DNA of 64,000 bases from Halichondria panicea. Lineage: Eukaryota. The stretch lies in contig NC_087384.1 of NCBI RefSeq assembly GCF_963675165.1, positions 2,678,315 through 2,742,314 on the forward strand, given 5' to 3'. Each line of letters opens with the position of its first letter. Position 1 is the stretch's first letter. Both the position numbers and the translations under genes were made by a program. Below are positions 16,694-20,322 of the stretch, piece after piece. Under the pieces are notes generated by a model, which was not told the DNA's origin, made no database searches, and saw only the letters and a list, made by a program, of their open reading frames with translations.

Positions 16694-17740
16694 TTACAGA
16701 GTTTTGATTGGTGTATGGGGAATTTCATTAAATTGTGAGAATTCAATTTCTTCTTTTGTTGAATTTTCTCTTGGACTGTTAGGGTATGATTCTTCTTCTT
16801 GTGCTGTTCGATCACACACAAAGAAGACGAGTGAGAACACAGAAATCACAATGAACGATAGGGCAGTAAATCCAAGGCGTACACTACCATTGCTGGTGCG
16901 GTTACAGGCGAGAGCATTAGCAGTTGTGTTGGCTGCATAAGTGTCACACCCAAATGCACAGTCAAGAGGCTGTCGATTGTCGGCAAGAAGGTACAAGGGA
17001 AGGCAGCATACTAATACAATCAGGCCAATGGTTACAAGGCCTGTAAAGACTCTTTCACTGTATTCATTGCTTGTAAGAGAGTACAAAAAGTAGCTAACTT
17101 CAGCAAATATTCCAGTGAGTACACAAACAGCAAGAAATGCTGAGCTGCTCGTAATATCTGACCTGTTGCAGAACTCTCTCGACTGTATCATAACTACAAT
17201 AGCCGAATAGAGTGTGTCTAATTTCACAAATATGGTAATCATGTCAATAGCTGAGAACCAATCAGGACTTTTTTTGGTTGTCGTCAGATTTAGTTTTTCC
17301 TTTCGCTTGAGGACCTTCAAAAACTGCTTACTGATGAAGGGAACCATTTGGAAGATTATGAGAGCCACACCTAGACAAAAAGAAGCAGCTCTACGGTTGT
17401 TGTTAACGCACTCTTCATCACAATTGAGTACCGTGCTATATTTATTGAGTAAGTTGGAAATGTTGTCACCATAGAAGTAAAGCAAAGCTCCAATTGTTTG
17501 AACAAAGGACGTTAGAAAGGTTGTGTAGTGACACTTAAAAATGCAAAGATAAACAAAATGGACAATTGTGAGAAGGCCGAAAAAAAGAAAGGCGACAAGT
17601 ACGAACAAAACAAGAGCTGCTGTAGCACTATCCAGATGATCACCATTCGTGAGTGTGATGATTTCTTGAATGATCGTGTTGAGCATGTCAGCTAGCAAAA
17701 GTATAACAAAAAGCCCTCTACTTTCAGGAATTGGTTTAGT
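16694..17740 (-). CDS. Novel multi-pass TM protein, paralog 1, main exon. The acceptor is at 17741-17743. A 6-nt first coding micro-exon (ATGGGG) lies at 17887-17892 with a gtaagg donor.
   Basis: ORF translation (T)KPIPESRGLFVILLLADMLNT...CLPLYLLADNRQPLDCAFGCDTYAANTTANALACN.... It contains 5-6 hydrophobic helices and is about 50% identical to paralog 2. Confidence 0.6.
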   Translation of the reverse strand, partial: TKPIPESRGLFVILLLADMLNTIIQEIITLTNGDHLDSATAALVLFVLVAFLFFGLLTIVHFVYLCIFKCHYTTFLTSFVQTIGALLYFYGDNISNLLNKYSTVLNCDEECVNNNRRAASFCLGVALIIFQMVPFISKQFLKVLKRKEKLNLTTTKKSPDWFSAIDMITIFVKLDTLYSAIVVMIQSREFCNRSDITSSSAFLAVCVLTGIFAEVSYFLYSLTSNEYSERVFTGLVTIGLIVLVCCLPLYLLADNRQPLDCAFGCDTYAANTTANALACNRTSNGSVRLGFTALSFIVISVFSLVFFVCDRTAQEEESYPNSPRENSTKEEIEFSQFNEIPHTPIKTL

Positions 17741-17886
17741 CTGTGGGTATAATAATTATACATTGTCACAGTATTATTGAAGTTGCATGCATTGCACACA
17801 ACTTTTACAATCATGATTTTGAATAAATGCACGTTTTTACAAATTCCTCTATGCACAATAATCTACTTAATCATGCTATACCTTAC

Positions 17887-17892
17887 CCCCAT
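17887..17892 (-). CDS. Putative exon 1 (Met-Gly) of TM paralog 1.
   Basis: ACAAAATGGGG|gtaaggtat. The equivalent ATGGGAAAG|gtaaaat lies upstream of paralog 2, and both splice in frame to a conserved KPIPESRGLF start of exon 2. Confidence 0.4.
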
Positions 17893-18417
17893 TTTGTAAG
17901 TGACTTCAAGTTCTTCTTGTAGCTTAGAAAACTGCTTGACACTTTTGTTTATGTGCGGTATTAATTAAGTTCCATGATGCAATGCAATGTTTACTCAGAT
18001 CTAGCCCCACCCATTCAAACCATATTCAACCAGTTAGAATTTCATCATGCCAGCCTGATGGGATAATAATTATTTAATTTTGCAGATCAGTACATTTATA
18101 ACTGTTAGCAAAGCTTGCAATGTGACTTAGCTAGATAGAGCAAGTTTTCAGATTAACAAATAAGAAAGATATCATGGACTGACTAAGCACATGGTCACAA
18201 TGACCTAAAATACATAACACAAGAAAGTTCTAGAATGTTCCTAAACATAGATATGACATCATTATCAACTAAGTGTGCCTCTAACAATAACTTATATAGA
18301 TCTACTTTTACATGTGTGTAGATTATACTGCAAAAAAGGTAGCTGCATGCTCTACTGCATCATCACAACTAATAAGGCAAACCTGGCCGCTTAGCTAGCT
18401 ACACGTATGGCCTAAGA

Positions 18418-19542
18418 TTAAGTCACAAGAGGGTTGATGTCATCCAACTTCTCTTTCAGTGTCTCCCCAAAATCATTAACAGCTCCACCCACATCGATAT
18501 CAGTGACTGTATCTTTAATTGCTGCACCAACATCAGGAAGATCAATCTCCTCCAGTTTATATTTCATTGCTGAGCCAATTTCGGTGAATTCGTCTCTTGC
18601 TTTTTGGTTAAGGATGAAATACACAATAGGGATTGTGGCGATAAAAATTAGTGACACACTGGTAAATCCTAGCCTCACGCTCTCGTTTACTACGTTGTTA
18701 CAAGCAATAGCATTAGCAGTTGTATTAAACGTGTCTGAGAACGTGTCACACCCAAAGGCACAGTCCAGAGGCTGACGGTTATCAGCAAGAAGGTACAGGG
18801 GAAGGCAAATCATCATGGAGATGAGACCAAATGTCACTAATGTCGAGTAAAGCTTGCTGTTATGTTTGTTGGTTGCCCATGCGTTCAAGAAATATACCAC
18901 TTCTGAAAAAATCCCAATGAATATGCAGACTAGCAGAAAGGTTGTGCTCGCGGCAATGTCAGTGTTGCTGCAATACTCAGTGGTCTGCACCATGCCTATT
19001 ATAGCAGAGTACAGTGTATTAATCTTCACAAACATCGTTATCATGTCAATAGCAGCAAACCAATCAGGAATTTTCTTTGTGACAACTGAGGTTGGTTTCC
19101 GCTTCAGTTTGAGCAGCTTCAATACATTCTTTGTAACAGGAGGAACAATATTAAAAATAATAAGAGCAATTCCCAGGGAAAAAGAAGAAATTATGCGGCT
19201 GTTCACAGTACATACTGAACCACATCCAACATCAACACCGTAGTTGTCAACTAAATCATTTATGTTGTTTCCGTAGAAGAAGAACAATGCACCAATAGTT
19301 TGGATAGTAGACGTTATGAATGTTATGCGGTGCCCTCTAAGAAAGCATAGGTATAAAAAATGAACAATAGCCAACGATCCAAAGAAAACAACAGCAATCA
19401 CCCCAAAAACCGTAAAAGCAGCAATAGCGCTCTCACCCCGACTGCCCTTGGCCAGCAAGATGATCTCTTGTACGAGAGTGTTGAGCATGTCAGCTAGCAA
19501 CAGGACAACAAAAAGTCCCCTACTTTCTGGGATTGGCTTGGA
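18418..19542 (-). CDS. Novel multi-pass TM protein, paralog 2, main exon. The acceptor cag is at 19543-19545. A 9-nt first coding micro-exon (ATGGGAAAG) lies at 19674-19682.
   Basis: Translation (S)KPIPESRGLFVVLLLADMLNT...CLPLYLLADNRQPLDCAFGCDTFSDTFNTTANAIACN.... It is a tandem duplicate in the same orientation, and its acidic C-terminal tail carries DxxxxID-type repeats. Confidence 0.6.
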   Translation of the reverse strand, partial: SKPIPESRGLFVVLLLADMLNTLVQEIILLAKGSRGESAIAAFTVFGVIAVVFFGSLAIVHFLYLCFLRGHRITFITSTIQTIGALFFFYGNNINDLVDNYGVDVGCGSVCTVNSRIISSFSLGIALIIFNIVPPVTKNVLKLLKLKRKPTSVVTKKIPDWFAAIDMITMFVKINTLYSAIIGMVQTTEYCSNTDIAASTTFLLVCIFIGIFSEVVYFLNAWATNKHNSKLYSTLVTFGLISMMICLPLYLLADNRQPLDCAFGCDTFSDTFNTTANAIACNNVVNESVRLGFTSVSLIFIATIPIVYFILNQKARDEFTEIGSAMKYKLEEIDLPDVGAAIKDTVTDIDVGGAVNDFGETLKEKLDDINPLVT

Positions 19543-19673
19543 CTGTGAATTAGAATAACATTGGCACTAAATTATTAACTGTAAAAGAAAACAATACTCA
19601 CATGTACTCATTGCCATTGTATATAAGCATAGACTGTATGGCATTGAGAACAGCTAGAGTAGATATATTTTAC

Positions 19674-19682
19674 CTTTCCCAT
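19674..19682 (-). CDS. Putative exon 1 (Met-Gly-Lys) of TM paralog 2.
   Basis: ATGGGAAAG followed by a gtaaaat donor, in frame with the exon-2 acceptor. Confidence 0.4.
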
Positions 19683-20322
19683 CTTCACTCTTCACTGTGA
19701 CATCCAATTGTTTGTGGTAAAGTAAAGTTGCTGTTTTGCAGCCTAAAAAGTGGGTGGGTCTCGATCACTCGAAATTAAGAATTGCGCATGCTCAATAGCT
19801 CCACAAGTACAATCATGGCCATGTACCACAAGGATCGCTATGATGCACAACCACAATTACATCATCTGAAGTGGAGTGTGAGGTGCACTGAGGTCTTGGA
19901 TCAACTATTTTTCTTGCAATACAAAATATATAATTATACTCGTGTTAGCCTAGCCTCGAGACCGTGTGAATGGCCTGGTCTCGAAAGCAGCAAGAACAAC
20001 CTGAGCAAAATTGGCGAAAATAAAATTTGAGATAACTTTGAGCTCTAAGTTTAATTGTACTCGGCCCAACATATCTGTAACAACTATAGTTAAAATGTCC
20101 AGGGTTGGGCTCCGGCTGGCTGCTAAACTACACTACATGTACCACCAAATTATTATACCAAAAAAATTATTTTTGAAAATAAGAATAACTATAGCGGTTT
20201 ATACAGCTGTCAATGTACTTCACAACAATTATACTACAGGCATCAAGTGCATGTGCTGTTTAATCTTAACTGTCAAACTGTCCATATATAATTATATACT
20301 CGATTACAATGCTGCTTGTTGC

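Follow-up and report, generated by a model that had tools for sequence, protein, structure and literature searches.

The tetraspan families (tetraspanin, MARVEL, claudin/PMP22, MS4A/CD20 and connexin/innexin/CALHM) share a unit of four helices with both ends in the cytoplasm, a cysteine-braced outer loop joining helix 3 to helix 4 and polar residues inside the helices, features that each half of the proteins described here resembles. Like this pair, they are often encoded by a single coding exon, in multigene families and with variable tails. Three further systems are comparable in other respects. Wntless (WLS) is an eight-helix cargo receptor with both ends cytoplasmic and has the same number of helices and the same overall topology; in class A GPCRs, TM1-7 follow the in/out order that helices 2-8 have here; and some channels and transporters are internally duplicated with parallel repeats (e.g., otopetrin, 6+6). 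Much of the sponge membrane proteome is unannotated. Sponges are not known to have neurons or recognisable gap-junction proteins, and still coordinate contraction, filtering and self/non-self responses.

The two genes studied here, A and B, lie adjacent and head-to-tail on the minus strand of a window of 64,000 nucleotides, i.e., the whole stretch of DNA analysed, of the breadcrumb sponge Halichondria panicea. The account that we favour, though tentatively and somewhat short of calling it probable, is that they are real tandem genes for an eight-helix glycoprotein made of two four-helix halves, which would work through a site for a cation or solute.

Layout of the tandem genes

Two minus-strand open reading frames, 16694..17698 (334 aa) and 18418..19500 (360 aa), are exactly those counted as main exons in the original prediction; both are counted from an arbitrary TTG. 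Neither gene has an in-frame ATG from the upstream stop up to the conserved S/TKPIPESRGLF segment, so the start must lie further upstream and be spliced on. Each gene comprises 2-3 codons, a short phase-0 intron and a single large exon, with the following features (the E values refer to a 128-sequence family profile):

17892..16694, minus strand: gene A, spliced product of 350 aa
17887..17892, minus strand: coding part of gene A exon 1, ATGGGG (Met-Gly), then donor gtaagg; read from the sequence, with ATGGGG followed by GTAAGA kept in the A-like orthologue (L008)
17741..17886, minus strand: gene A intron 1, 146 nt, GT..AG, phase 0; acceptor cag before ACT at 17740
16694..17740, minus strand: gene A exon 2, residues 3-350 and stop codon; E 2.6e-128, dN/dS 0.10-0.13 versus orthologues
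16940..17005, minus strand: 22-residue motif CLPLYLLADNRQPLDCAFGCDT, gene A residues 248-269; the same 22 residues as in gene B
19682..18418, minus strand: gene B, spliced product of 377 aa
19674..19682, minus strand: coding part of gene B exon 1, ATGGGAAAG (Met-Gly-Lys), then donor gtaaaa; splices to XP_064392534.1, with an identical ATGGGAAAG followed by GTAA in the B-like orthologues (L005 and L008)
19543..19673, minus strand: gene B intron 1, 131 nt, GT..AG, phase 0; acceptor cag before TCC at 19542
18418..19542, minus strand: gene B exon 2, residues 4-377 and stop codon; E 1.4e-124, dN/dS 0.09-0.10 versus orthologues
18742..18807, minus strand: 22-residue motif CLPLYLLADNRQPLDCAFGCDT, gene B residues 249-270; exoplasmic end of helix 7 and start of the loop with cysteines and N-glycan site
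18421..18591, minus strand: divergent, predicted cytoplasmic tail of gene B, approximately residues 321-377; acidic EIDxPDVG / DIDVGG repeats, low pLDDT
19750..19793, minus strand: conserved blocks upstream of gene B, GAGCATGCGCA (19793..19783) and CGAGACCCACCCAC (19763..19750), from the alignment with the B-like orthologues (L005 and L008); probably promoter elements

The spliced product of gene B is identical to RefSeq XP_064392534.1 (“uncharacterized protein LOC135340137,” 377 aa), so that the novelty originally claimed for both proteins holds for the family and its function but not for this sequence. The exact 350-aa product of gene A was absent from the protein collection, where an independent model of this gene was not found either, and an exact-sequence contig look-up with the 377-aa product of gene B returned no match. 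The first exon had been described as tiny and followed by GTAAG; it is tiny in its coding part only, and the donor reads GTAAG in gene A (gtaagg) but GTAAA in gene B. The Met-Gly start, predicted to be conserved, is retained in close orthologues but is not family-wide, since other paralogs start with MPGK or MEVG; some distant members may start at ATGCAG instead. N-myristoylation of this start was considered and rejected. The PROSITE pattern PS00008 places Gly2 in G-{EDRKHPFYW}-x(2)-[STAGCN]-{P}, and the contexts GTKPIP (gene A) and GKSKPI (gene B) do not match it.

Membrane topology and internal duplication

Over 321 aligned residues the two products share 55% identity and 76% similarity (E 1e-126); the identity had first been estimated at approximately 50%. 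An AlphaFold2 model based on a 128-sequence alignment (pLDDT 91.6, pTM 0.87) contains eight long helices, where only five or six hydrophobic helices had been predicted. The protein is very probably an eight-helix glycoprotein of the membrane whose N- and C-termini are both cytoplasmic. This N-in/C-in topology is indicated by the positive-inside distribution of charge, by the conservation of an N-x-T sequon and by that of six cysteines. A sequon lies in the cysteine-rich loop between helices 7 and 8 in 84% of the members and occurs in any other loop in at most 12%, and K/R-rich loops occupy the opposite face. The NTTANA stretch and the extra cysteines are present as anticipated, in a loop that is best read as exoplasmic. 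Gene B possesses C110, C114, C194, C264, C268 and C284 together with N276-T-T, all with equivalents in gene A, and the co-loss of cysteines across the family suggests the disulfide pairs C110-C114, C194-C264 and C268-C284.

Conservation is highest on the exoplasmic face, which bears an acidic/amide cluster and an N-x-T sequon present in nearly all members. Both genes have the family pattern Y-x-x-[G/A]-[D/N]-N where helices 3 and 7 reach the outer face, accompanied by D-N-x-Q-P-L-D-C: helix 3 ends with FFYGNN in gene B and YFYGDN in gene A, and both contain LYLLADNRQPLDC in helix 7. The motif CLPLYLLADNRQPLDCAFGCDT had been noted as a perfectly conserved stretch, and it is indeed identical in the two products; its core (D257 N258 x Q260 P261 L262 D263 C264 ... 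C268, gene B numbering) is conserved across 128 members. At the codon level, genes A and B differ in this motif by 8 synonymous and 0 non-synonymous changes, so that its identity is held by selection, and recent gene conversion as the source of the identical 22-mer is ruled out by these synonymous differences. Conserved charged residues also occur within the helices, i.e., D21 and E29 in helix 1 and K176 and D178 in helix 5. The C-terminal tails, on the other hand, diverge in the way first described, with acidic repeats in gene B (EIDLPDVG...TDIDVGG...), and are hypervariable throughout the family, in many members with repeats.

The two halves of the protein align with each other. Comparison of half versus half with hhalign gave a probability of 89.6 (P 1.9e-6) and a score of 40.1 over 134 columns in register, versus scores of 6.6-15 for reversed or column-shuffled controls. 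Helix 1 matches helix 5, and both bear a conserved Asp embedded in the membrane; helix 3 matches helix 7, and both terminate on the exoplasmic side in Y-x-x-[G/A]-D-N, ahead of a cysteine loop. These alignments argue strongly that the protein originated when a four-helix unit was duplicated within one chain.

Relation to known families and possible function

No Pfam family reached its curated cutoff with genes A and B, 54 diverse members, long-tailed members or the family and half-repeat consensus sequences; the sub-threshold matches (DUF1129, DUF3671, MARVEL, WLS-like_TM and YwiC) were scattered and non-recurrent. Sequence searches of the PDB with two profiles gave E values of approximately 1-2 only. 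This agrees with the initial impression that the family could not be recognised, as neither Pfam nor the PDB searches (profiles and Foldseek) provided a match to a characterised family. The family is large, uncharacterised and without a Pfam family or PDB fold match.

Our leading guess for its function, possible but rather doubtful when taken by itself, is a site that binds or conducts a cation or solute. The two pseudo-symmetric halves would bring the D/N motifs and the buried Asp and Lys residues around a shared polar site, and this site may bind or conduct a cation or small polar solute, which would make the protein a channel- or transporter-like unit whose paralog-specific tails could tune trafficking or partners. 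However, the buried charges may be purely structural salt bridges, and a conserved exoplasmic face combined with variable tails would be just as compatible with a receptor, an enzyme or a scaffold.

A cell-surface organiser, adhesion protein or co-receptor is somewhat less likely still. Such a protein would work like two tetraspan proteins (tetraspanin, MARVEL, claudin or MS4A type) joined covalently into one chain; its disulfide-braced, glycosylated exoplasmic face would bind a common partner while the variable tails recruit different cytoplasmic ones. The 4+4 duplication of an N-in/C-in four-helix unit, the strong conservation of the exoplasmic face next to hypervariable and repetitive tails, and the tandem arrays with one coding exon per gene are all consistent with this role. 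The consensus of the N-terminal half also aligns over its full length with MARVEL (PF01284), but the match is sub-threshold (13.5 bits, E 0.077, below the gathering score of 32.8 bits) and MARVEL is absent from the 25 families most matched by the 54 members. None of these members reached a Pfam threshold for any tetraspan family. Tetraspanins in particular are not indicated, with neither the CCG motif nor a Pfam match. Connexins are recognised by a four-helix subunit, CX6CX3C and CX4CX5C spacings in the outer loops and a Pfam match, whereas the present proteins, compared with connexin, innexin-pannexin and CALHM, have eight helices, only CX3C spacings and no Pfam match. The conserved buried charges in the helices would also be less expected in a pure scaffold.

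It seems quite improbable that the proteins are membrane-embedded enzymes of the secretory pathway, e.g., glycan or lipid transferases or hydrolases, with the luminal acidic/amide cluster (GDN, DNxQPLD, D269 and R293) as the active site. The clustering of near-invariant D, N, Q and R residues on one face would fit this role, and an invariant site with variable tails would imply the same chemistry in all paralogs. Nevertheless, beyond the disulfide cysteines no His, Ser or Cys that could serve as a nucleophile is conserved, no likeness was found to the folds or Pfam families of membrane enzymes, GT-C, CREST and TLC among them, and housekeeping enzymes do not usually expand in tandem arrays while their tails diversify.

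A GPCR-like seven-helix signalling receptor with an extra N-terminal helix is very improbable and largely refuted. Helices 2-8 do have the orientation of GPCR TM1-7, a cysteine atop helix 4 and one in the next outer loop could mimic the TM3-ECL2 disulfide, receptor families are typically found in intron-poor tandem arrays, and the best Foldseek matches in the PDB are class A receptors (ghrelin, NPY4 and HCA2; E 0.14-1.4, probability at most 0.87). However, these matches have TM-scores of 0.23-0.26 and an rmsd of approximately 15 Å, and the class A fold was rejected at a TM-score of approximately 0.25. No 7tm match, including 7tm_1 (rhodopsin-like GPCRs), was obtained for genes A and B, the 54 members or the consensus sequences, and both E/DRY and NPxxY are lacking. 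Cysteine co-loss couples C110 to C114 and not to C194, and a 1+7 origin cannot be reconciled with the 4+4 internal repeat. The model does not have the seven-helix GPCR fold, and the N-terminus is predicted to be cytoplasmic, not extracellular. Wntless differs as well: its helices 2-8 are GPCR-like, which the present fold is not, and it has a large luminal domain between its helices 1 and 2, where these proteins have a loop of approximately 4 residues. WLS-like_TM was matched by only 1 of the 54 members, weakly (E 0.0096) and without recurrence.

Selection and extent of the family

Three-way orthologue comparisons gave dN/dS values of 0.08-0.13, from which we infer that both genes are functional. 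Two orthologous arrays of other assemblies (L005 and L008) keep the genes in the succession (third paralog), B-like, A-like, with the same first coding exons, ATGGGAAAG and ATGGGG, each followed by GT. Judged from these comparisons, genes A and B are functional, tandemly duplicated genes of H. panicea, and the predicted tandem pair of multi-pass membrane protein paralogs is real. That they would be untranscribed chance reading frames, pseudogenes or annotation artefacts is exceedingly improbable: although the exact product of gene A is missing from the protein collection and some family copies elsewhere (L003 and L009) are frameshift-split, this is opposed by open reading frames of 334-360 codons in DNA of approximately 38% GC, by these dN/dS values and the purely synonymous divergence of the 22-residue motif (8 versus 0), by the conservation of splice sites, start exons and putative promoter blocks across assemblies, and by the RefSeq model for gene B.

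At E≤1e-3 the family comprises 424 clusters (50% identity), a number that falls to 112 when E≤1e-30 is required. A further profile search of a word-indexed database gave 21 matches, nearly all already known, and a concatenated profile of the motifs only gave 0 matches in that database. On the fetched loci the genes occur in same-strand arrays of 2-4 copies, and genes A and B fit this arrangement of a start-proximal phase-0 intron, a single large coding exon and same-strand tandem arrays. A prokaryotic or symbiont origin was rejected in view of the introns and of the absence of any relative among 185,579 prokaryotic genomes. The only named sources of family members are H. panicea and the holobiont metagenome of Mycale hentscheli, in whose WGS data a family fragment occurs (PMC7196800).

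A bolder reading is a superfamily restricted to Porifera, a fused four-helix pair with a fold absent from solved structures, which sponges would have invented and diversified as a novel class of ion channels, transporters or surface receptors. We consider this decidedly unlikely as a whole, and the restriction to sponges is deduced from very few identifiable sources, the 424 clusters carrying no organism names. If true, the lack of neurons and gap-junction families in sponges would make the family a candidate for signalling, between cells or from the environment, that is specific to sponges, and a channel, transporter or receptor function would make it a lineage-specific invention at the base of the animals; a link to a known family in a fold comparison with AlphaFold models would instead make it an ordinary divergent member of that family. 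What is new is the protein family and, as far as tested, its fold, not any demonstrated biology. The family is now defined as large, selected and tandemly expanding, with a high-confidence model, a clear topology, a 4+4 duplication, three putative disulfides and a sharply conserved exoplasmic acidic motif, and this turns “uncharacterized LOC” entries into a testable target for which residues, loops and paralogs are specified.

Five of these entries are paralogs in H. panicea annotated by RefSeq as “uncharacterized protein”: LOC135340137, which is gene B (100%), and LOC135339723, LOC135339451, LOC135346419 and LOC135347056, which share the eight-helix layout, the six cysteines, DNxQPLDC and the gene structure with the pair. 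None has been assigned a name, domain or function, and gene A has no matching named model in the protein collection. Some members carry a cytoplasmic tail resembling MgtE_N (P0137, E 2.6e-5), a match that concerns few members only and, with 25.1 bits, falls just under the Pfam cutoff of 25.9; together with the conserved charges within the helices, these tails hint at the handling of ions or solutes.

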